55,515 nucleotides of DNA from Fibrobacterota bacterium (GCA_039798005.1 JBDKGV010000001.1:1-55515), one strand, 5' to 3'; shown: positions 24,794 to 34,636, counted from the stretch's first letter. Made by a program: numbers and translations. The notes: generated by a model not told the origin, from the sequence alone.

Positions 24794-26173
24794 CTACCAA
24801 CTCCAATGCACACCCGCCCGTGCCTGGACCTTGTCGGGCAGATGCCCGACAAGCGATCCCGGCCGCGCCCAAGCCAGCGCGGTGATGGCGCTCTCCAAGG
24901 TCACACGACGCCCAAGTGACCGGTGGAGGTCGGCTTGCACAAGCACGCCTTCCGTCGGACCGATCCACAGGGTGTTGATGCCACCTCCCCAGTTCAAGGA
25001 TTCCACGCTCCCCCATCGCACCAGCAGGCGGTGAGCATAGCCATCGATCCACGGGGAAGTCCGGGCGAATTCACCAAGGATCTGTCGAGCCCTGCCACCA
25101 AGCCTGCTCGGCATCGGAATGGACGACAGATCATCGATCGCCTGCGCCATTTCGCGACTTTGGCGCACGGACATGCCGCCGCCTGACTCCACCCATTCCA
25201 AGGAAAGTCGCGTCAGCCCCAGGCCTGCAGTCGGGAGATCGCGCTGGATCTGCACCGCAAGCTCAGGACGAAAATCTCCATTAGGTGCGACAAGCTCCCA
25301 TTGCCCTGCCGGGTCGCGATCCAAGCGCGGGAACTCCCCGTCGTCACGCATCGCGACCTCGCTGGAAAGGAACCACCCGCTTCGGCTCCATTCCCAGCTC
25401 CCACCCAAGGACAGAAATTGTCCTGTTCCGGCTTCCAGACGCAGATCGTGTCCTCCCGGCAAATCAAACGTCTGCTCCAGACGCACGCATCGCCGCTGCT
25501 CCGAAAGGATCCCGTCCCATCCGGTGACCGGGGAGAGCGTCGGGAACACCTGCACCGCGGTCCGCACGCCCTCCGCCCAAGTTCCTTCCACCCCGATACC
25601 GGTCGGGTTGCGCTCCTGCGACTCGTCGGCGCCTTGCGATTGCCTTGCAACCAGAGGCGAGACCCGTGACGGATGCGCCGACAACCCTGCCCCCGGCTCG
25701 ATCCGCATCGATCCGCTCCAAAGCGCAATGCGCCGGTCACCCTCCCAGCCCATCCGCAGCCAACCTTCCCGCAGCACGAACAGGGACCGAGTCCTCTTCG
25801 ATGCGGAATCCACCCCTTCCCCACCCACTAGCGGGGCGGCATGCGCCTGCAGGACCCAACGTCCATTGTCACCCGCAAAGGCGCGGTTCCCGGAGATCCG
25901 CATTTCACTCCACGCTTGCAGTCGCGACGAGGTCGGATCGCTCCCCAACACCGCCCTGACGAAGGATGCGGAATTTCCCTTCAAGGCTCCGCCCCCCGCC
26001 CACAGGCTTCCCTGCGCCTCGAAGTTCCAGCGTGGCGCAATGGGCGCGTCTTCCACGATCGTGGTGGATGAATCGCTCCAATCGGATGAAATGACAGAAT
26101 CCGTCACATCCTCCAGTGACATGCCCATGCTTGCGACCAGAGCGAGATGAGCCGACAACGCGCAAGCAAGCAT
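24794..26173 (-). CDS. Predicted outer-membrane beta-barrel protein; last gene of the envelope operon
   Basis: Hydrophobic N-terminus. Alternating amphipathic strands are rich in G/W/R/S/E. The C-terminal residue is aromatic (…RAGVHWSW). It starts 3 nt after the upstream stop. The family was not recognised. Confidence 0.55.
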   Translation of the reverse strand: MLACALSAHLALVASMGMSLEDVTDSVISSDWSDSSTTIVEDAPIAPRWNFEAQGSLWAGGGALKGNSASFVRAVLGSDPTSSRLQAWSEMRISGNRAFAGDNGRWVLQAHAAPLVGGEGVDSASKRTRSLFVLREGWLRMGWEGDRRIALWSGSMRIEPGAGLSAHPSRVSPLVARQSQGADESQERNPTGIGVEGTWAEGVRTAVQVFPTLSPVTGWDGILSEQRRCVRLEQTFDLPGGHDLRLEAGTGQFLSLGGSWEWSRSGWFLSSEVAMRDDGEFPRLDRDPAGQWELVAPNGDFRPELAVQIQRDLPTAGLGLTRLSLEWVESGGGMSVRQSREMAQAIDDLSSIPMPSRLGGRARQILGEFARTSPWIDGYAHRLLVRWGSVESLNWGGGINTLWIGPTEGVLVQADLHRSLGRRVTLESAITALAWARPGSLVGHLPDKVQARAGVHWSW

Positions 26174-26176
26174 CCG

Positions 26177-26935
26177 TCAATCCCGGGTCTGGAGATCGCG
26201 GAGATTGTCCTTGTCGAAGGTCCCGACCGGAAATTTTCCGGGAACGAAATGCGAGAACCGCACGCGCGTCTGCCGCTTCACGTTCACCGCATCCAGGATC
26301 TCAAGTTCCGAGGCCAGCTCCTTCCCACCGGTGCGCACGAACCCCTTGTACCGCAGGCTCTTCAGCAACTTCCCCGAGCGCGTCAGAAAGCGGGCCTCCA
26401 CCGGCCTTGCCGACCCGGCGCGCACACGCAGCTGGATCCGCTCATGGAGGGCATCGGGACGGCTGGCTTCAAGGTCCAGTGACAAAAATTGTCCGACCTC
26501 CGTCACGTTCCCGCGATAGCGGCCGCGCAATTCCACATTGAGAACATCCCCGATCGAAGCGTCCCCAAGCAGGCGCTGCTGCACCGAGACCGGCACCGGC
26601 CGCGAGGTTCTTCGGGTCAGGATCCACATGTCCGGCCCACTGGAGAGGATCAGGTTCCCCTTCTCCACATCGGGCGAAAGAACACGCAAGAGCACCGCCC
26701 GCGCCGACGGGGACGGATGCACCTTCAACCGGTACTTGCTCGACTCGCCAGGCTTCCCGCCTTCCCACGTCTCGATCTCCAGGTCGCTCTGGTGGTCGCC
26801 TTCGAGGCCACGGAAGCGATCCACGCAGGAAAGCAGGCTGTCCAGCCGTTCCTGGGTCCATGCGACCTGCGCCGGTGCGGCGACGAAAAGGAGAAGGACG
26901 ACAGAAATTGTCAAACACATCCGGAACTCACCCAT
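26177..26935 (-). CDS. LolA-like outer-membrane lipoprotein-sorting-family protein (periplasmic)
   Basis: Signal peptide MGEFRMCLTISVVLLLFVAAPAQVAW. Size and pattern (…DHQSDLEIETWEGGK…YRLKVH…AVLLRVLSPDVEKGNLIL…MWILTRR…) resemble the LolA_like family found next to FtsX-type ABC permeases. The start overlaps the permease stop by 8 nt; an alternative ATG is at 26920. Confidence 0.6.
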   Translation of the reverse strand: MGEFRMCLTISVVLLLFVAAPAQVAWTQERLDSLLSCVDRFRGLEGDHQSDLEIETWEGGKPGESSKYRLKVHPSPSARAVLLRVLSPDVEKGNLILSSGPDMWILTRRTSRPVPVSVQQRLLGDASIGDVLNVELRGRYRGNVTEVGQFLSLDLEASRPDALHERIQLRVRAGSARPVEARFLTRSGKLLKSLRYKGFVRTGGKELASELEILDAVNVKRQTRVRFSHFVPGKFPVGTFDKDNLRDLQTRD

Positions 26936-28253
26936 TGCGCAGGCTTTCGATCAGGGTACGGCGGCATCCGCGCAGACAGGGAAGCAGCGAGGAGAGCACG
27001 ACGGCAGTCAGCACGAATTCACCGACCTGCAGGATCAGGAACGGCTCCTCGATCACCCGCAGGCGGATGACGTACCCTCGACTGGATCCGGGGGGAGGTG
27101 CCGCCTCCAGTCCGTGCAGATTGAAGAGACCGATCACGCCCAAGGCGACCACGGTGGCAAGCACGGTCCCGACGATTCCCAACAGGACGGATTCCGTCAT
27201 GAAGCGCTGCACCAAGGCCGCGGGCGGCGCACCGAAGGCCCGCAGCAGGCTGATTTCCTGACGCCGCTGCAGGATGGCGATCTCCAGGATGCTGGTGATG
27301 AACACGAACACGAAGCCCAGCAGGATGCCTGCGAAGAAGCGGAAGATGCCGGTGTACAGACTGCGCACCGATTGGTAGTACGTGGCCAGTTCCTCCCAAC
27401 GGCGAAACTCCAAGTCCAGTCCTTCCGATTTGGCCAAGCTGCGGGTGCGCGACAGGACCGTATCGAGGTCGTGGCTGTCGTGCAGGAGCACCAGCACCTT
27501 GTCGCACAGGGTGTCCCCGAGCATGTCCCACGCCGTGCCCAACGGGATCTTGAGGGCCACGTCGTCGTAGTCGCGACTGAAGGATTCCGTGATTCCTTTC
27601 ACCTCCAGATCGCTCGATGCCATGTTGCCGCGCGGTGTGGTGGTCAAAAGCGTCAAGCCCGATCGCGGCTTGGCGTCCATGGCCTGCGCCAAGCCAAGAC
27701 CCGTCAGAGCCGTCGCACCATCCCCGTCCCGGAAGCGTTCGCCTTGGGTGACCTGCTCGCCGAAGGCCGACAGCTTGCGATCGGCGACCGGATCGACCGC
27801 CCGCCCGAGGAAGGTCCGGCTGACATTTCCGTTGGACAGGATCCCCGTGAAGGAGAGCTCGGGAGCCACGACCTCAACCTTCGCATTCAGGAAGGAATCG
27901 GCTTGGAACAGATCACGGATCGCGTTCGGGTCGCGCAGCTTCCAGCCCCACGGATCCTTGCGGGCATGGGTTTCATACCCGTTCTTCATGATCTGGAAGT
28001 GGCCGGTCTGGCTGCGGATGGTGCTCTCGGAAAGTCCCCAGAAGCTGTGCTGGAAATACCCGCCCATGGCAAGCAGGGAAAGCACGCACACCTGGATGGT
28101 CAGGAACAGGATGGCCGTGAAGCCAAGACGCCTGACCAGCCCGATGGCCGCAAGACGGACCATGGCAGGGCGACGCCAGGCCATGCCCACCAGCCACAGG
28201 AGCGCAAGCGCCGAAAAAAGATGCAGGAACAACGAGATGCCGGAAGGAAGCAT
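26928..28253 (-). CDS. FtsX-family ABC transporter permease (MacB/LolC/LolE type)
   Basis: Length 441 aa. Topology is an N-terminal TM, a ~230-aa periplasmic domain, then three C-terminal TMs (…LLGFVFVFITSILEIAILQRRQEISLLRAFGAP…), as in type VII ABC permeases. Confidence 0.8.
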   Translation of the reverse strand: MLPSGISLFLHLFSALALLWLVGMAWRRPAMVRLAAIGLVRRLGFTAILFLTIQVCVLSLLAMGGYFQHSFWGLSESTIRSQTGHFQIMKNGYETHARKDPWGWKLRDPNAIRDLFQADSFLNAKVEVVAPELSFTGILSNGNVSRTFLGRAVDPVADRKLSAFGEQVTQGERFRDGDGATALTGLGLAQAMDAKPRSGLTLLTTTPRGNMASSDLEVKGITESFSRDYDDVALKIPLGTAWDMLGDTLCDKVLVLLHDSHDLDTVLSRTRSLAKSEGLDLEFRRWEELATYYQSVRSLYTGIFRFFAGILLGFVFVFITSILEIAILQRRQEISLLRAFGAPPAALVQRFMTESVLLGIVGTVLATVVALGVIGLFNLHGLEAAPPPGSSRGYVIRLRVIEEPFLILQVGEFVLTAVVLSSLLPCLRGCRRTLIESLRNG

Positions 28254-28255
28254 GG

Positions 28256-28804
28256 TCAGTCCTTCCCCGACGACAACCGGGACAAAGCCGAATCGACCAG
28301 AGTCCGTTCACGGGCCGAAAGGACGCCACTGGCAACCAAGACCGAAAGCGAATCGCGCGCCGCCGCGTCCTTCCGGAAGACCGGAGGCAGATGCGAAAGC
28401 GTGAGCGCGTGCGTCAGCCGCAACCAGGTACTGCCCGGATAGCTCAGATGCCCCGCCTCAAATTCCGCAAGCCCGGCATCCACGGACTCGACCGCCTTGA
28501 TCACATCGCCCGCCTTGGAGTATGCTCCCCCGGTGCGGGTGAGCCAACCGGCGTGGACCGCCAGGAACGCATCGGTGTTCCAACGCGCAAGGAATTTCTC
28601 GAGCCGCGCCTTTCGTTCAAGGGCCACGGGGAGGGTTGGTTCCTCTCCCGAAAGCCAGGCCTTGCCCACTTGCAGGCAGGCGCTGGAATCGCGTCCGTCG
28701 CCGCACGCCCGTTCCAGCTCCAGAAGCGGGTCCCCGCCCTTGGCACAGGCGCCAAGGACAAAAATTGTCAAAATCAACGGAATGATGAGGTGATGGGATC
28801 TCAT
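28256..28804 (-). CDS. Hypothetical helical lipoprotein, possible paralogue of 29477..30127
   Basis: MRSHHLIIPLILTIFVLGAC has a lipobox. There is an ATGA overlap with the ATPase stop. It shares GDVI..A...L..L.A and LR(L/I)....L..(L/V)P..F..D...RD..(S/F)L spacing with the neighbouring 216-aa protein. Confidence 0.6.
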   Translation of the reverse strand: MRSHHLIIPLILTIFVLGACAKGGDPLLELERACGDGRDSSACLQVGKAWLSGEEPTLPVALERKARLEKFLARWNTDAFLAVHAGWLTRTGGAYSKAGDVIKAVESVDAGLAEFEAGHLSYPGSTWLRLTHALTLSHLPPVFRKDAAARDSLSVLVASGVLSARERTLVDSALSRLSSGKD

Positions 28805-29484
28805 GAAATGATCCTTCCGTCGCGAAGGTGAATCAAGGCAGACCCCAGCGGTTCCATGAGCGCCGGGTCGTGGGTGGCGATCAGGATGCCGCAGCCTTCC
28901 CGTTCCCGGATGTCCAGGAACAGGTCGAGGATCTCCGCCGCCGTGTGACTGTCGAGGCTGGCCGATGGCTCGTCGGCGATGATCAGACGCGGCTTCTTGA
29001 GCAGGGCCCGCGCCATGCACACGCGCTGTCGCTGCCCTCCGGAAAGCTTGGTGACCCGCTTGTGCGCGTGATCGCCAAGCCCCAGCCGCTCCAACAATTC
29101 CATCGCCTGGAGACGATGGTCCGACGTGACCGGTCCGATGTGGACCTGCGGGGCCAGCACGTTCTCAAGGCTTGAGAGCCATGGGATCAGCCAGTTTTCC
29201 TGGAACATGAAGGAGATCCCTTGCGCCCGAAGCCGGGTCCGGTCGGACTCGCTCAAGGTGGCCGTATCGTGTCCCAGAAACCGGTACGTTCCGGAGGTCG
29301 GGGAATCGAGCAGCCCCAGGATCTGCAAGAGCGTGGTCTTGCCGCTCCCGGACGGCCCAACGACGCAGCGGATCTCCCCGCTGGCCATGGTCAGATCGAT
29401 GTCTTCAAGTGCTGCAAACATCGCACCGCCGGACTCGCCGTACCGGCGGGACACGGCTTTCAACTCCACCAGCGGCTCAGCCAC
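28801..29484 (-). CDS. ABC transporter ATP-binding protein (LolD/MacB-NBD type)
   Basis: Walker A GPSGSGKTT, signature [15 protein letters not shown] and Walker B LIIADEPSASLD. The GTG at 29484 (VAEPLVELKAV) overlaps the upstream gene by 8 nt. Confidence 0.9.
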   Translation of the reverse strand: MAEPLVELKAVSRRYGESGGAMFAALEDIDLTMASGEIRCVVGPSGSGKTTLLQILGLLDSPTSGTYRFLGHDTATLSESDRTRLRAQGISFMFQENWLIPWLSSLENVLAPQVHIGPVTSDHRLQAMELLERLGLGDHAHKRVTKLSGGQRQRVCMARALLKKPRLIIADEPSASLDSHTAAEILDLFLDIREREGCGILIATHDPALMEPLGSALIHLRDGRIIS

Positions 29485-30127
29485 GGATCGACTCCAGACG
29501 TCGGCGCGCCTGGGCGCGCTGCGTGACCGAAGCGATCTTGCGACCGGCCACCAGCTTCCAAAGCGCGGTGGCCTCACCCAGATTCCCGAAGCGGTAATTC
29601 AAGGCGGCCAAGGCAAGAAGCGTTCCTGCATCGGCTTGGGCGAGTTTCGGGAACCGGGCACGCAGGAAGGCTTCGTCCCGGCGCAATCGCTTGTCGACAT
29701 GGAAGATCTCCGGGACCTCCACCAGGCTGTTGATGCGGAAGATCCGCACGGCAAGGTCCATGGAATCCGCGGCCACGGCGGCATCGAGATGCTCGATGGC
29801 CTTGCCGACCCAGCGCGTGGCCACGATCACATCCCCCCGGGTCCGTCGCGCCTGCAAGGCATCCGCCGTCCCCAGGAGTGCCGCATGCAACGCGCTCGGC
29901 TTCGCACGCTGCAGGGAATCCAGCACCGTCCATGCACTATCCAAGGACGGACCTCCGGTGCTGTCCCCTGCCGCCAGGAACAGATGGATGATTCCCCGTT
30001 CCCCTTCGTTTGAACGCTTGAGCTGTCCTTCCAGTTCAGAGTGCGACAGGGAGCCGCAGCGTTCCACCACTTCCTTCGACGACGGGGCGGACTGCAGCAA
30101 CCCCAACAGCATGATCAAGTGAAGCAT
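29477..30127 (-). CDS. Hypothetical secreted helical protein
   Basis: Signal-like N-terminus MLHLIMLLGLLQSAPS. Composition is Ala/Leu/Arg-rich and helical. It sits between the POTRA outer-membrane protein gene and the ABC ATPase gene. Confidence 0.55.
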   Translation of the reverse strand: MLHLIMLLGLLQSAPSSKEVVERCGSLSHSELEGQLKRSNEGERGIIHLFLAAGDSTGGPSLDSAWTVLDSLQRAKPSALHAALLGTADALQARRTRGDVIVATRWVGKAIEHLDAAVAADSMDLAVRIFRINSLVEVPEIFHVDKRLRRDEAFLRARFPKLAQADAGTLLALAALNYRFGNLGEATALWKLVAGRKIASVTQRAQARRRLESIRG

Positions 30128-30146
30128 CAGTTCTCTCCTTGAGTGT

Positions 30147-31448
30147 TCAGAAATCCCGCTCGGTCACCAGACGAACGCCAAGAAAACGTCCCGCCGACCA
30201 TGCGGAGGTGATCAGGAAATCGACGCCGACCGGCGCTCGAAACGTGAAGTGAAGGCCTGCACCATGGACCAGGCCCCGGTGCACCATTTCGCCCTTTGCG
30301 GCGTACGCCTCCAACAGGCCGTGGATCCCGGCATCCAAGCCCGTGAACCACAGGTCACGCCGCCACAGCGAAAATCGCGGCTGCATGGATATGGTCGCGC
30401 TGCGCTCCAGAGCCGGGTCGACGGATTGGGCCTGCCAGACGCCGAAGCCTCCGGACATGCCGGGCAGGAATCCGGGACGATCGACGACCATCCCCGCATC
30501 GCCCACCATCAAGGCGGAGGCTCTTCCCCAAGCCGCGGTGCGCCAGACGCTGTGCAGGCCTGCCGTCGCGAAAGCCGGATCCTTGGACAGATTCTGTCCA
30601 ACCATCAGTTCCGCACGAATGACGCCACCAAGACCCAGACGCTCCTTGGCCCATGACCCGTCGATTTCCCAGGCGGGCCTGGCGTACAGGGAGAGCTGAG
30701 CCTTTCCGGGCAGCTTCCCTTCGGAGTCGCGCACCGCCCAGACTCCGGCCTCCAGGTCCCAAGCGTGAACCGGTGACAGAATTTGTCGAAGCGTGATCGC
30801 AGAGCGAAAATGTTGCAAACCATGATCCGGGGCCGAGGACTCCATCGGGGTCTGATATTGCAGGAGCCCGCCGACGAACAGCCCGGGTCGCAACGCCAGA
30901 TCGCGATGCCCGCCGATCCGGTTGACCCCTGCCCAAAGGCCCCACTGGTCGCCGACCCCGGTGCAGTTGTGATGGCCGAAGTATCCGAAGGCGTTCCCTC
31001 CGCCGTAGCTTCCAAACGTGCGCGATCGCGCCTCCACCAGAATCCGGAACCCCTCCTGCCATGGCTGGACCATGGCGACGCAGGCTTCGAAGAAATCGGT
31101 GCGCCCGGCCATGCGTTCGTTGAAGGACAGGAGCAGCGCCTCCAGCTCCGCCCTCGACAGCTTCTCTCCCCGATGGACGGGAAGGAGATGCTCCACGAAC
31201 CGGGCCACTTGGGGGTCGACTCCGCGCACGGCGATCTCAAGCACAGGCCGGATCGAATCCACGGAGGATTGGGCGCTTTGGCCATCCATTCCCAGCGCCT
31301 GCGCCTCCTCGGGGGAGAGGGCAAGGCTCGGATCAGGCACGAGGGAATCGACCGAAGCGTCCTGCGGAAGGTCTTGGGCACACGCAATTTGGGCCAAAAG
31401 GATGCACAAGACACCCCCCAGGCTTCGGATGGAAGCGGGAATACGCAT
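30147..31448 (-). CDS. Outer-membrane protein with an N-terminal POTRA-like domain and a beta-barrel (Omp85/TpsB-like)
   Basis: Signal peptide MRIPASIRSLGGVLCILLAQIACAQD. POTRA-like segment IAVRGVDPQVARFVEHLLPVHRGEKLSRAELEALLLSFNERM…FRILVEARSR. Gly/aromatic-rich strands. C-terminal Phe (…VTERDF). Confidence 0.65.
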   Translation of the reverse strand: MRIPASIRSLGGVLCILLAQIACAQDLPQDASVDSLVPDPSLALSPEEAQALGMDGQSAQSSVDSIRPVLEIAVRGVDPQVARFVEHLLPVHRGEKLSRAELEALLLSFNERMAGRTDFFEACVAMVQPWQEGFRILVEARSRTFGSYGGGNAFGYFGHHNCTGVGDQWGLWAGVNRIGGHRDLALRPGLFVGGLLQYQTPMESSAPDHGLQHFRSAITLRQILSPVHAWDLEAGVWAVRDSEGKLPGKAQLSLYARPAWEIDGSWAKERLGLGGVIRAELMVGQNLSKDPAFATAGLHSVWRTAAWGRASALMVGDAGMVVDRPGFLPGMSGGFGVWQAQSVDPALERSATISMQPRFSLWRRDLWFTGLDAGIHGLLEAYAAKGEMVHRGLVHGAGLHFTFRAPVGVDFLITSAWSAGRFLGVRLVTERDF

Positions 31449-31469
31449 GGGCGGGAATAGGCTTTGCGG

Positions 31470-32123
31470 TTATTCGGTGCGGGAAGCGGGGGCGAGATTG
31501 CGGCGGAAGGCAAAGAGCCCGGCGCCCCAACCCAGCATTGGATAGAAGGCCCAGGTCAACCGGCCGTGCTGCCACAGGTCAGCGACCACGAAGACGATGC
31601 TCATCCCAAGCCAAGCGAAGATGTGCTCCTGGAAGGCGCGACGCCGAACCTTGTCCACTCCGGTCTCGGCCGTTTTGGGGCGGGATTGCGCCCAGGCATG
31701 GCGTCCATGCAAGGCAAGTCCAGTCCCCCAGCCAAGCAAAGGCCACTGTGCCCAAGTCACGGCGTGGTTCTGCCAAAGGTCTCCGCCAAGGAAGAACACC
31801 GCCCCGGCCAAGTAGAACCACAGATGCTGGAGGAACTCCCGACGCGGATCGCGGGGAAGGAACAGGTCGAACGGCTCGCGGGGCTCCTCGGGGACCGATG
31901 GCACCGCACGGGCGGTTTCAGGCTCGGTCGGAGTCTCCGAAATCTCGCTCAAGTCCACCCCAAAGGCGGCGGCCAAGGACAGGCGGGAATCGCTGGAACC
32001 GTTCCCCTCCCGCTCGATGCGCTGCACCGTACGCAAGCTCAATCCGGCCACGGTGGCCAGATGCTCCTGGGTCCAGGAACGCTCTTCGCGCAAGTTGCGG
32101 ATCTTCTGAGGGTCAAGCGTCAT
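31470..32123 (-). CDS. Membrane-tethered XRE-family HTH regulator fused to two 2TM-type membrane repeats
   Basis: HTH segment IRNLREERSWTQEHLATVAGLSLRTVQRIEREGN. Two repeats follow of the pattern (R)REF.QH...Y......FL...DLWQ....TWA.(W/Y)P(L/M)LGWG.GL. It lies 21 nt upstream of the POTRA outer-membrane protein gene. An alternative ATG is at 32150. Confidence 0.7.
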   Translation of the reverse strand: MTLDPQKIRNLREERSWTQEHLATVAGLSLRTVQRIEREGNGSSDSRLSLAAAFGVDLSEISETPTEPETARAVPSVPEEPREPFDLFLPRDPRREFLQHLWFYLAGAVFFLGGDLWQNHAVTWAQWPLLGWGTGLALHGRHAWAQSRPKTAETGVDKVRRRAFQEHIFAWLGMSIVFVVADLWQHGRLTWAFYPMLGWGAGLFAFRRNLAPASRTE

Positions 32124-32238
32124 CTCTGGCTTGCACGGTAGGTCGGGCATGACTCCAATGTCAACCCGAACCCGCAATGTGACTACGACAACCACCCGCC
32201 AAATGATGCGACAGTGCGATTGCGGCCTGAAAATGCGG

Positions 32239-32348
32239 TTTTGGGCGCCGCCCCGGCAAAGACCGTGGCCGCCCTCCTCCGGGCTCGCCGGGTCCGGCTC
32301 GGTGCTGCGCACCCACCGGTTCGGTGGCCCTGCGTCCGGCTGGCGCGC
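32239..32348 (+). repeat. GC-rich intergenic repeat, family R2, copy a
   Basis: ttttgggcgcc…ggccgccctcctccgggctcgc…ggtgctgcgcacc…ccctgcgtccggctggcgcg is homologous to copies b and c. Confidence 0.6.
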
Positions 32349-32397
32349 CGAGAAGGCCCCCTGGCGCTGGGCAATGCACGACTTTTTTCTCCAAACG

Positions 32398-32440
32398 TGA
32401 CAAATTATTAGACAGAATTTGTCCGTGATGTGACATTTAC
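32398..32440. promoter_or_regulatory. Candidate operator in the divergent promoter region between the envelope operon and the collagen-like gene
   Basis: Sequence is tGACAAATTattaGACAGAATTTGTCcgtgatgtGACATTTac. It holds the full 13-mer GACAGAATTTGTC (32411-32423). There is an 8-bp inverted repeat GACAAATT/AATTTGTC. A third GACA half-site is also present. It is the only AT-rich island in this intergenic region. Confidence 0.45.
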
Positions 32441-32509
32441 GCCCGTTCTCCAACCGCCCGCAGGACTCCTGCGTTCCATCGTTCATCCAACTCCGAAGAG
32501 GTCAGACTC

Positions 32510-34636
32510 ATGAGTCTTGTCACGCGTTCCGCCGTGGCTGCAGGTTTGCTTGCCGCCACGGTACCGCAGGCGCAATTGGTGGTTTCCCACCAGTCGGCGA
32601 CCGGCAGCAGCAACAGCAATTTGATCCGCCCTTATCTCAAGATCGAGAATCAAGGAAGCGAAACCGTCGATCTGGCCAAGACGACGCTGGACTACCTGAT
32701 CAACGACGATGCCGCCCCGACCGCACTGGTGGCCGACTGCTGGTACAACTCGGCAGGCTCCTGCAGCGATGTGACTGCTGAGATCTCGAACATTCCGGCT
32801 CAGAAAGAGGGCGTGCGGCAGGCCAATGTGCGGGTGCGCTTGGGCTTCCTGCGTGGTCAGTTGGCCGCCGGGCAGAGCGTCATCCTCCAGTGGGGTCTGC
32901 ACGAGCAGAGCTGGCAGCACATCTTCAACGAGCAGGACGACTGGTCCTTCGTCTCGACCAACGGCCAGTGGACGGTGGACACCTACGTGCCCGTGGGCCA
33001 GCCCGGCAAGGAGCCTTCCGCCCCTGCCCTGGTCTGGAAAGGCCTGACCGACCAACTGCCTGACATCGCCTCCTACAAGGTTGGCGATGTGGTCCGCGAC
33101 CGCAACACCGGCTCGACCTATGTCTTGAACGACGGAATCTGGCAATTGCTGGCGGAATCCGGCAAGGACGGCGCCGTTGGCCCCATCGGACCCCAAGGAC
33201 CTGTCGGTGCAACCGGTGCCGCCGGTCAAGATGGCTCAGTCGGTCCTCAAGGACCCAAGGGTGATGTTGGCGCAACTGGACCCGCCGGTAAGGACGGTGC
33301 CGTCGGTGCTATCGGTCCCCAAGGACCTGTCGGTGCAACCGGTGCCGCCGGTCAAGACGGTGCAATTGGACCCGTCGGTCCTCAAGGGTCAATCGGCGCA
33401 ACCGGTGCAGCTGGTCAAGATGGTGCAATTGGCCCCGTTGGACCGCAAGGACCCATCGGTGCAACTGGTGCGGCCGGTAAGGACGGAGCTGTCGGTGCTC
33501 AAGGACCCAAGGGCGAGATCGGTCTGACCGGTGCCGCTGGCAAGGACGGTGCCGTCGGTCCCCAAGGACCCAAGGGTGATATCGGTCTGACCGGTGCCGC
33601 TGGCAAGGACGGTGCCGTCGGTCCCCAAGGACCCAAGGGTGATATCGGCCTGACCGGTGCCGCTGGCAAGGACGGTGCTGTTGGTGCGACGGGCGCCCAA
33701 GGACCCATCGGTCTGACTGGACCCGCTGGTAAGGATGGTGCTGTCGGTGCAATCGGACCGCAAGGCGCAAAGGGTGCTGTTGGTGCGACTGGCCCTCAAG
33801 GCATTGCCGGTGCAACTGGTACTGCAGGTAAGGATGGAGCGGTCGGTGCTATTGGCGCTCAAGGACCCGCCGGTGTACCGGGTGTTGCTGGACCCGCTGG
33901 TCCCCAAGGTCCGAAGGGTGATATCGGTGCAACCGGACCCCAAGGACCTGCCGGTGTGCCGGGTGTTGCTGGACCCGTTGGCCCTCAGGGTGCCAAGGGC
34001 GATGTGGGACCTGCTGGCCCGACTGCCAATGTGACGGCACTTCAGGCACAGGTCACTGCGTTGCAGGCACAACTGGCAGCAGTTGCGAGCGGGAACTTCG
34101 TGTATGACTCCCGCGATGGCAAGGTCTACAAGACCGTCGTGATCGGAACCCAAACTTGGATGGCTGAGAATCTGAACTATGCTGGGAGCGGGACCTGCTA
34201 TGGTGGGGATGCGGCGAATTGCGCCGCCTATGGACGCTTGTACACTTGGGCAGAAGTGATGGGTGTTGCCTCCACTTACAACACGACGAGATTGAATCCC
34301 ACCCCACCCTCAAAGGGCATTTGCCCAACGGGCTGGCATGTCCCCGTCAATTCTGAATGGTACACCCTTAACAGTGCAACAGGTTTCGATGCTGCAGCCC
34401 TCAAGTCGACCAGTGGTTGGCAAGTCAACGGAAACAACAGCTCAGGCTTCAATCTTCTGGCTGGCGGCTTTTCTGGCGGCTATCAAGGAGATATGGCGTT
34501 ACTGTGGGGAGCTTCAGAATACTCTGACAATGGCGTCTACCGTATCGCGCTACGCTCCTCGTGGAGTTCACTTGAATCCGGAGGGGGAGTGGTGGGGAAA
34601 ACCGCTGGCATGTCCTTACGCTGCGTGAAGAACTGA
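32510..34636 (+). CDS. Secreted CBM3-like / collagen triple-helix repeat / coiled-coil / FISUMP (TIGR02145-like) domain protein
   Basis: Signal peptide MSLVTRSAVAAGLLAATVPQAQ. The CBM3-like segment NSNLIRPYLKIENQGSETVDLAKTTLDYLIN…DDWSF…GKEP is collinear with CipA CBM3. About 95 uninterrupted Gly-X-Y triplets span 33161-34021. They are followed by VTALQAQVTALQAQLAAV. The C-terminus is FISUMP-like: YKTVVIGTQTWMAENLNY…GRLYTW…CPTGWHVP…LRCVKN. Confidence 0.85.
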   Translation: MSLVTRSAVAAGLLAATVPQAQLVVSHQSATGSSNSNLIRPYLKIENQGSETVDLAKTTLDYLINDDAAPTALVADCWYNSAGSCSDVTAEISNIPAQKEGVRQANVRVRLGFLRGQLAAGQSVILQWGLHEQSWQHIFNEQDDWSFVSTNGQWTVDTYVPVGQPGKEPSAPALVWKGLTDQLPDIASYKVGDVVRDRNTGSTYVLNDGIWQLLAESGKDGAVGPIGPQGPVGATGAAGQDGSVGPQGPKGDVGATGPAGKDGAVGAIGPQGPVGATGAAGQDGAIGPVGPQGSIGATGAAGQDGAIGPVGPQGPIGATGAAGKDGAVGAQGPKGEIGLTGAAGKDGAVGPQGPKGDIGLTGAAGKDGAVGPQGPKGDIGLTGAAGKDGAVGATGAQGPIGLTGPAGKDGAVGAIGPQGAKGAVGATGPQGIAGATGTAGKDGAVGAIGAQGPAGVPGVAGPAGPQGPKGDIGATGPQGPAGVPGVAGPVGPQGAKGDVGPAGPTANVTALQAQVTALQAQLAAVASGNFVYDSRDGKVYKTVVIGTQTWMAENLNYAGSGTCYGGDAANCAAYGRLYTWAEVMGVASTYNTTRLNPTPPSKGICPTGWHVPVNSEWYTLNSATGFDAAALKSTSGWQVNGNNSSGFNLLAGGFSGGYQGDMALLWGASEYSDNGVYRIALRSSWSSLESGGGVVGKTAGMSLRCVKN
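33521..33700 (+). repeat. 63-bp tandem repeat (~2.8 copies) inside the collagen-like region
   Basis: The unit ggtctgaccggtgccgctggcaaggacggtgccgtcggtccccaaggacccaagggtgatatc starts at 33521, 33584 and 33647. It encodes GLTGAAGKDGAVGPQGPKGDI. Confidence 0.85.

Follow-up and report, generated by a model that had tools for sequence, protein, structure and literature searches.

An eight-gene envelope operon in a Fibrobacterota genome

We examined a 55,515-nucleotide stretch of DNA from a Fibrobacterota bacterium (GCA_039798005.1, JBDKGV010000001.1:1-55515), referred to below as the window, for an operon of eight genes at positions 24794-32123 that is predicted to encode a transport system of the cell envelope. 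An earlier note, made from the sequence alone, had listed the eight genes and the lengths of their junctions, and an open reading frame (ORF) check of the window reproduced them all. The eight co-directional ORFs, here named g1 to g8 from the 5' end, lie on the minus strand with exactly the coordinates noted, and the successive junctions from g1 to g8 are +21, +19, -8, -4, +2, -8, and +3 nt, negative values denoting overlaps. The operon is real and, as detailed below, conserved. Its predicted products are an ATP-binding cassette (ABC) ATPase (g4), a permease (g6), and a periplasmic carrier (g7), together with an Omp85-type protein (g2), two helical paralogues (g3 and g5), a last protein (g8), and a putative regulator (g1).

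The ABC transporter and the LolA-fold carrier

The g4 gene (28801..29484) begins with a GTG codon, overlaps g3 by 8 nt, and encodes a predicted ABC ATPase of the LolD/MacB/DevA type (Pfam ABC_tran, E=2.4e-32) that retains intact Walker A, signature, Walker B, and H-loop motifs. The best NCBIfam matches were MacB, LolD, and DevA, each under its curated cut-off; the LolD equivalog TIGR02211, for example, gave 184.5 bits against a cut-off of 307.75. Good scores, again under the cut-offs, were obtained with the L_ocin_972_ABC (bacteriocin export) and darobactin-export ATPase models.

The g6 gene (26928..28253) encodes a predicted FtsX-family, or type VII ABC, permease (Pfam FtsX, E=3.2e-15). Hydropathy analysis indicated four transmembrane (TM) helices plus an extra N-terminal hydrophobic segment, with approximately 245 residues between TM1 and TM2. 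This loop aligns with the periplasmic domain of LolE, and the lolCE/LolE models and the LolE structure in the PDB cover residues 123-380. The closest solved structures were LolE (E=2e-7), LolC, LolF, and YtrF, and the lolCE equivalog TIGR02212 was matched at 46.7 bits, short of its cut-off of 362.45. Matches to permeases of the related modules described below were much stronger than that to LolE (E=8e-57 with the Escherichia coli O157 protein versus 2e-7). The extra hydrophobic segment comprises residues 6-24 (window positions 28182-28238), ahead of the usual first TM helix; it is common to the E. coli O157 homologue and is not found in the homologues from Borrelia (BBJ27) or E. coli G8. If residues 6-24 span the membrane, the N terminus of g6 would be periplasmic.

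The g7 gene (26177..26935) shares its first 8 nt with the end of g6, and its product has a signal peptide but lacks a lipobox. It matched Pfam PF17131 (LolA_like, now TP_0789-like; E=1e-14) and, over residues 33-248, PDB entry 3buu (NE2245, a member of the LolA superfamily; E=1e-15), and is thus predicted to be a periplasmic LolA-fold carrier. The canonical LolA and LolB models in Pfam and NCBIfam matched none of the eight operon proteins at E<=0.1. In the literature, TP0789 was found only in a proteomics listing as a predicted lipoprotein.

The Omp85-type protein, the helical paralogues, and the last protein

The g2 gene (30147..31448) encodes a protein with a signal peptide and a C-terminal phenylalanine, the residue in which every orthologue ends. 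The sequence had no match at E<=0.1 in Pfam (Bac_surface_Ag, ShlB, POTRA) or NCBIfam and no sequence match in the PDB. An AlphaFold2 model built from eight sequences was of moderate confidence, with a mean predicted local distance difference test score (pLDDT) of 69 and a predicted template modeling (pTM) score of 0.66. It consists of a beta-alpha-alpha-beta-beta POTRA-like domain at approximately residues 67-140 followed by a barrel of about 15-16 long strands as counted with DSSP. When the model was searched against the PDB with Foldseek, BamA, TamA, and CdiB were the top hits (E values from 7e-9 to 4e-7, probability 1.00), with query-normalized TM-scores of 0.38-0.48 among the 50 matches listed. 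On the basis of this model g2 is predicted to be an Omp85-superfamily barrel with one POTRA-like domain. The family is rare, forming 8 clusters among 5.8 billion proteins, and a metagenome scan with the g2 alignment returned solely the lineages already found.

The products of g3 (29477..30127) and g5 (28256..28804) are predicted to be TPR-like helical paralogues, the first secreted and the second a lipoprotein. Alignment of the two family profiles with hhalign gave a probability of 77% and E=2e-5 over 83 collinear columns. Pfam TPR models matched four of six g3-family members, and in the PDB the g3 family profile gave weak matches to TPR proteins (CpoB, E=0.003). The lipobox of g5 (LGAC, LSGC, FAGC, or IISC) is kept in all five orthologues. 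Every Fibrobacterota-type locus, even a reduced one, has a g5 gene. It sits between the ATPase and permease genes, the position taken by a 218-aa protein in the E. coli O157 module.

The last gene, g8 (24794..26173), is the fastest-evolving member of the operon and always follows the gene for the LolA-like protein. Its product has a hydrophobic, signal-peptide-like N terminus, and most relatives share a C-terminal motif of the type RWSW, RWNW, or RYFF. Both features are compatible with an outer-membrane location rather than proof of one, and we regard g8 as a candidate outer-membrane component. It had no match in Pfam, NCBIfam, or the PDB; its distant members had none in Pfam. An AlphaFold2 model from five sequences was unusable (pLDDT 33). 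A home-made beta-amphipathicity score was discarded, as it did not separate the modeled barrel g2 from other proteins. The g8 family comprises 12 representative clusters among 1.84 billion proteins by exhaustive HMMER search; a word-indexed profile search had added one sequence. One 2105-aa protein matched positions 282-328 of the g8 profile at 26 separate places and also gave DUF3331 and T2SSF-like matches; its matches to g8 are probably a repeat or composition effect.

The earlier note had named most of these proteins from the sequence alone. Its ABC ATPase, FtsX permease with a large periplasmic domain, and LolA-like protein were upheld by the hidden Markov model (HMM) and PDB profile matches; its POTRA-plus-barrel protein was supported at the level of the fold; and its pair of paralogous helical proteins, with g5 a lipoprotein, agrees with the profile alignment and the conserved lipobox. 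The same note had called g8 a second predicted beta-barrel, a label that the failed model does not sustain and for which the signal peptide and aromatic C terminus are the support.

Conservation of the operon in Fibrobacterota-type loci

Six other contig lineages carry g2-g8 in this order, with g6 49-70% identical to the window protein, so that the neighborhood recurs outside this genome, a check the earlier note had proposed. The full g1-g8 order with the 8-, 4-, and 8-nt overlaps is present in three loci (L001, L002, and L010 in our numbering). In L001 and L002 the proteins are 68% (g1), 51% (g2), 61% (g3), 68% (g4), 47% (g5), 70% (g6), 58% (g7), and 39% (g8) identical to those of the window, and the three overlaps are kept across loci whose proteins are 21-70% identical. 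Scanning genomes with an alignment of four permease sequences placed the proteins nearest to g6 in metagenome-assembled genomes labeled "uncultured Fibrobacteres bacterium" (71%) and "Fibrobacter sp." (53%). By these matches the window belongs to an uncultured Fibrobacterota lineage of high GC content (approximately 62%).

The gene content of the loci differs. L052 (GC 42%) has g2-g8 and lacks the regulator g1. L011/L051 (GC 36%) have g2-g8 with a third TPR-like gene, and identities to the window of 53% for g6, 26% for g2, and 21% for g8. L053/L054 (GC 47%) have g4-g8 and the third TPR-like gene but lack g2 and g3. By these differences in gene set, g4-g8 form the core of the system, with g2 and g3 an add-on and g1 specific to a lineage. 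The third helical protein, of approximately 370-385 aa, is encoded after the g8-type gene (L011:13661-14773; L053:11834-12991) and has no counterpart in the window; that of L011 is weakly similar to the TPR-like protein of E. coli G8. The modules of L011/L051 and L053/L054 are flanked by genes for three ketosynthase (KS)-like proteins, two PS-DH-like dehydratases (DH), a hydrolase, a ketoreductase (KR), and a 970-aa aminotransferase.

Related modules in Proteobacteria

The permease genome scan and a tblastn search with g7 revealed a module with the order ATPase, helical protein of approximately 220 aa, FtsX permease, PF17131 protein, and hypothetical protein of 400-480 aa. In the genome scan it was present in many Enterobacterales and in genomes labeled Acinetobacter, Neisseria, and Vagococcus. 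The tblastn search added plasmids of Paraburkholderia and Aliiroseovarius that carry the module without the helical protein, and a Bdellovibrio plasmid with the module genes in a different order. The E. coli O157:H7-type module occurs in 390 of the 5426 complete E. coli genomes.

Gene order and sizes in the E. coli O157-type module match g4-g5-g6-g7-g8, and those in the E. coli G8/Brenneria-type module match g3-g4-g6-g7-g8. The g6 protein is 28-31% identical to the two E. coli-type permeases (31% and E=8e-57 for O157; E=2e-47 for the other), g7 matched the O157 carrier family with E=4e-23 by hhalign, and BLASTP aligned g3 with the helical protein of E. coli G8 (EcG8_h220; 33% identity, E=2.4e-7) through common motifs. 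The g4, g6, g7, and g3 proteins are homologous to components of the proteobacterial modules. Within the Proteobacteria the last genes are homologous to one another; their homology to g8 of the window is not demonstrable. An hhalign link between the two families (E=0.011, 208 collinear columns) was rejected as not significant, with HMM P values of 2e-4 to 1e-3 against 4e-3 to 9e-3 for unrelated controls, and the profile of the proteobacterial family had no match in the PDB.

Unlike the window operon, the proteobacterial modules have no Omp85-type gene, have a single helical protein, and are embedded in clusters of the KS/acyl carrier protein (ACP)/KR type. The biosynthetic context comprises KS, ACP, and malonyltransferase genes for the E. 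coli O157 module; ACP, KS, short-chain dehydrogenase/reductase (SDR), crotonase, and FeeM-like N-acyl amino acid synthase genes for the G8 module; and cytochrome P450, SDR, and phosphopantetheinyl transferase genes for the Paraburkholderia module. In E. coli O157:H7 EDL933 (L008:1-13076, from NZ_CP124742.1), homologues of g4, g6, and g7 and proteins at the g5 and g8 positions lie in an island of KS, ACP, and malonyltransferase genes adjoining ycdU. There, three of the six module genes are annotated as "hypothetical protein" only, and the ATPase, permease, and lipoprotein-sorting protein carry generic names. Our searches found nothing on the function of the module in the E. coli O-island literature and no paper on combinations of LolA-like and FtsX proteins.

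On the E. coli G8 plasmid, the gene just upstream of that for the helical protein (L009:3928-5289) has a FeeM-type N-acyl amino acid synthase domain (E=4e-8), and its Brenneria salicis orthologue (L044:4901-6235) is 75% identical. This domain suggests that the product exported by the G8/Brenneria variant may be N-acyl amino acids.

Comparison with Borrelia BBJ23-29 and with characterized systems

A cluster of similar composition, BBJ23-29 of Borrelia, was recently described on computational grounds only (Nixon et al. 2026, PMC13078400). It encodes an ABC ATPase and a homodimer-type FtsX/MacB-like permease, a LolA-like protein, a pair of TPR paralogues, and an Omp85 barrel, and its seventh protein has no assigned identity. 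BBJ25, the barrel, is said to have no POTRA domain, and the seven-gene cluster is stated to be found only in Borrelia. The parts list is the same as that of g2-g8, and the order ATPase, permease, LolA-like protein, and last protein is also the same. We compared the window with lp38 and three other Borrelia plasmids. The g6 protein is 24% identical to BBJ27 over its full length (E=5e-24; E=6e-21 for the profile comparison by hhalign), and g4 is 34% identical to BBJ26 (E=6e-38). The match of g7 to the BBJ28 family was weak (hhalign E=0.0017, 155 collinear columns). Profile comparison gave no link between g2, g3/g5, and g8 and, respectively, BBJ25, BBJ23/24, and BBJ29, the last with an hhalign E value of 0.65. 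Homology to the Borrelia module is thus indicated for g4 and g6 and, weakly, for g7.

The two clusters also differ. The g2 protein has a POTRA-like domain, whereas BBJ25 is reported to have none; one of the TPR-like paralogues of the window is predicted to be lipidated, and its gene lies between the ATPase and permease genes; the operon includes an HTH/2TM regulator; and the window cluster is chromosomal in a GC-rich Fibrobacterota genome, whereas that of Borrelia is on a linear plasmid. In Borrelia group 2 clusters (Borrelia sp. RT5S p-lp25, L046:9400-13306; Borrelia afzelii PKo lp28-8, L047:9335-13250), genes for SagB, SagC, YcaO, and a CAAX protease directly follow the seven-gene module. 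This set forms a streptolysin-S-like modified-peptide cluster, a hint at a possible cargo in Borrelia group 2, and is not mentioned in the sections of PMC13078400 consulted here.

Among characterized pathways, LolCDE-LolA-LolB likewise combines a type VII ABC extractor bearing a periplasmic domain with a periplasmic carrier of the LolA fold. However, g4 and g6 score far short of the LolD and LolCE cut-offs, the carrier is a PF17131 protein and not a member of the LolA family, LolB is absent, and the Omp85, TPR-like, and g8 proteins are additional. The Omp85 superfamily (BamA, TamA, and TpsB/FhaC/CdiB) shares with g2 the predicted fold of POTRA-like domain and approximately 16-stranded barrel, but g2 matches no family HMM, has a single POTRA-like domain, and is partnered by an ABC/LolA-like system instead of BamB-E, TamB, or TpsA.

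The MacB-type ATPase/permease engine is common to the window operon, MacAB-TolC, and DevBCA-HgdD. DevBCA exports polyketide-derived heterocyst glycolipids and is linked to a lipid cluster resembling polyketide and fatty acid synthases. The eight operon proteins gave no match to HlyD-type adaptor or TolC (OEP) families in Pfam or NCBIfam, and a soluble carrier presumably bridges the periplasm in place of the continuous duct of MacAB-TolC and DevBCA-HgdD.

The absence of an HlyD adaptor, TolC, and LolB from the operon, as stated in the earlier note, therefore stands for the Pfam and NCBIfam models, and the HMM searches that it had proposed assigned no gene to a standard Lol or MacAB-TolC system. 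Its further statement that the combination corresponds to no characterized pathway holds in that we found no experimentally characterized pathway of this composition in the literature; the combination itself has precedents in Borrelia BBJ23-29, described computationally, and, for the core, in Proteobacteria. The window operon is a further form of this recently and only computationally described system.

The regulator, the upstream region, and the flanking genes

The g1 gene (31470..32123) encodes a protein with an N-terminal helix-turn-helix (HTH) domain of the XRE type (Pfam HTH_3, E=3.7e-7) and two C-terminal stretches of the 2TM domain (Pfam 2TM, E=5.7e-15), in keeping with its designation as an XRE-HTH/2TM regulator in the earlier note. 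Orthologues of 213 aa lie immediately upstream of g2 in L001 and L002, and their length supports the start at 32123. No g1 was present upstream of g2 in L011/L051 and L052. From its domains and distribution, g1 is predicted to be a lineage-specific, membrane-bound regulator outside the conserved seven-gene module. The ORF that contains it (31470-32486, minus strand) is open for 121 more codons upstream of the proposed start, and a second in-frame ATG lies 27 nt upstream of that start.

Between the operon and a divergent upstream gene lies an intergenic region of 386 nt (32124..32509, no strand assigned). It is the only non-coding gap of more than 21 nt upstream of the operon and presumably holds its promoter. 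A scan of the upstream region for the sigma-70 consensus gave no match, and terminator-like hairpins within the operon were fewer than expected from shuffled sequence; the promoter and terminator scan was rated uninformative overall. An AT-richer patch at 32380-32450, read on the minus strand, carries two TGTCAC motifs (AATGTCACATCAC and TTTGTCACGTTTGG) and could be a candidate operator for the g1 regulator or a part of the promoter.

The divergent gene (32510-34636, plus strand) encodes a large secreted protein in which a CBM3 cellulose-binding domain is combined with long stretches of collagen triple-helix repeats and, at the C terminus, a Fib_succ_major domain. Many spurious overlapping ORFs arise from the collagen repeats. 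At the 3' end of the operon is a convergent metallophosphoesterase gene.

Discussion

We consider it reasonably probable that g2-g8 form a single module dedicated to exporting a hydrophobic cargo across the envelope, most likely a lipid-like secondary metabolite of fatty-acyl or polyketide origin and not a protein, with g1 as a lineage-specific regulator. The conserved overlaps of 8, 4, and 8 nt, together with internal terminator-like sites that fall under the expectation from shuffling, argue that the genes act as one unit. The extreme rarity of the g2 and g8 families argues for an accessory rather than a housekeeping role. A lipid-like metabolite is favored as cargo because relatives of the module are repeatedly embedded in clusters of the KS/DH/KR type.

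In the proposed mechanism, g4 and g6 would assemble as a (g4)2(g6)2 type VII ABC transporter in which ATP use in the cytoplasm moves the LolE-like periplasmic domain and so extracts an amphiphile from the outer leaflet of the inner membrane. The LolA-fold carrier g7, a soluble protein, would take over the extracted cargo. Of the TPR-like pair, g3 would be soluble and g5 lipid-anchored, and both may serve as docking or scaffolding factors. At the outer membrane the cargo acceptor would be g8, which always occurs together with the carrier. Here and in Borrelia, an Omp85 protein, in this operon the POTRA-bearing g2, may insert the cargo or pass it to the cell surface. By analogy with MacB/LolCDE-type transporters and with LolA, we infer which way the cargo moves, in what order it is handed over, and where g3, g5, and g8 are located.

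Several observations weigh against this reading. No biosynthetic genes were found within the 55-kb window or adjoining the module in L001, L002, and L052. The Borrelia group 2 clusters adjoin the SagB, SagC, YcaO, and CAAX-protease genes, which make a modified peptide and not a lipid. A LolA fold and a LolE-like domain fit a lipoprotein cargo equally well. AlphaFold2 gave no usable fold for g8; the equivalence of g2, g3/g5, and g8 to the Borrelia parts is one of fold and position and not of sequence; and the support for this kind of module is wholly computational. A lipoprotein-specific route is the main rival.

The earlier note had pointed to the divergently encoded collagen-like protein and to nearby lipoproteins as candidate cargo. 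This proposal found no support, and we rejected the collagen-like protein, as its gene is absent between the operon and a carboxyltransferase gene at the orthologous loci L001 and L002; the relatives of the module sit instead in clusters with KS, DH, KR, and aminotransferase genes.

A Lol-like route would have the ABC/FtsX transporter extract a subset of triacylated lipoproteins for shuttling by g7, after which g2, with g8 and the TPR proteins, would insert them or flip them to the surface in place of LolB, much as in Slam- or BamA-assisted export. The solved structures best matching g6 are LolE, LolC, LolF, and YtrF, and g4 matches LolD; g7 has the LolA fold; no LolB-like protein occurs among the operon proteins; one g3 homologue gave a sub-threshold match to the Slam TPR domain (E=0.0075); and a lipoprotein route is among the readings offered for BBJ23-29. 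However, all Lol equivalog scores are far under their cut-offs (46.7 versus 362 bits for lolCE; 184.5 versus 307.75 for LolD), the accessory families are much rarer than housekeeping sorting would allow, a pattern-limited scan of GTDB returned two Fibrobacterota species representatives only, and the relatives are embedded in small-molecule biosynthetic clusters. We judge this route rather unlikely.

Less probable still is an exporter of modified peptides or bacteriocins, or a self-protection pump, in which the ABC/FtsX transporter would act like MacB, BceAB, or a lactococcin-972-type system and the periplasmic and outer-membrane parts would complete secretion. The position of the Borrelia group 2 clusters immediately upstream of the SagB, SagC, YcaO, and CAAX-protease genes would accord with such a function, as would the scores of g4 with the L_ocin_972_ABC and darobactin-export models, even though these fall under the cut-offs. 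Yet no precursor-peptide or modification genes are found near the module in the Fibrobacterota loci or in the window, most contexts are KS/ACP/KR clusters, and peptide exporters are not known to include a LolA-fold carrier with a hydrophobic cavity.

A specialized machine for protein assembly or secretion, akin to TAM, BAM, or two-partner systems, with g2 as its functional center, g8 or the collagen-like protein as substrate, and the ABC system unrelated or only regulatory, is very improbable despite the resemblance of the g2 model to BamA, TamA, and CdiB, its one POTRA-like domain, and the large divergently encoded collagen/CBM3/Fib_succ_major protein, as g2 and g3 are dispensable, L053/L054 and the E. 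coli O157-type module having g4-g8 without them, the collagen-like gene does not adjoin the operon in L001/L002, and Pfam and NCBIfam reveal no TpsA-like or TamB-like partner among the operon proteins.

The preferred reading of g2-g8 as a dedicated exporter of a lipid-like metabolite has a broader extension that we advance tentatively, as an idea somewhat short of probable. The core g4-g8 and its proteobacterial and spirochaetal counterparts may constitute a widespread, unrecognized route for lipid-like cargo, in which a type VII ABC extractor would load a TP_0789/LolA-like carrier that delivers to a new class of outer-membrane protein, represented by g8 and the other last genes. To this route Fibrobacterota and Borrelia would add an Omp85 protein and a TPR protein for delivery to the surface. 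If this is true, an Omp85 protein would work with a lipid or lipoprotein carrier and not with unfolded beta-barrel substrates.

The design of BBJ23-29 is not a specialty of Borrelia, being present with a POTRA-bearing Omp85 protein in free-living Fibrobacterota. The value of the present comparison is that it extends the system past the spirochaetes, sets the core g4-g8 apart from the Omp85/TPR add-on, and ties the module to biosynthetic clusters and to tractable relatives in E. coli. The core occurs in genetically tractable Enterobacterales including E. coli O157:H7, beside a small fatty-acid/polyketide-like cluster, which makes the system directly testable. It bears on how hydrophobic molecules other than lipopolysaccharide, phospholipids, and canonical lipoproteins cross the periplasm to the outer membrane or the cell surface, including in phyla without LolB, and could represent a new envelope trafficking pathway and a non-canonical function for an Omp85 protein.

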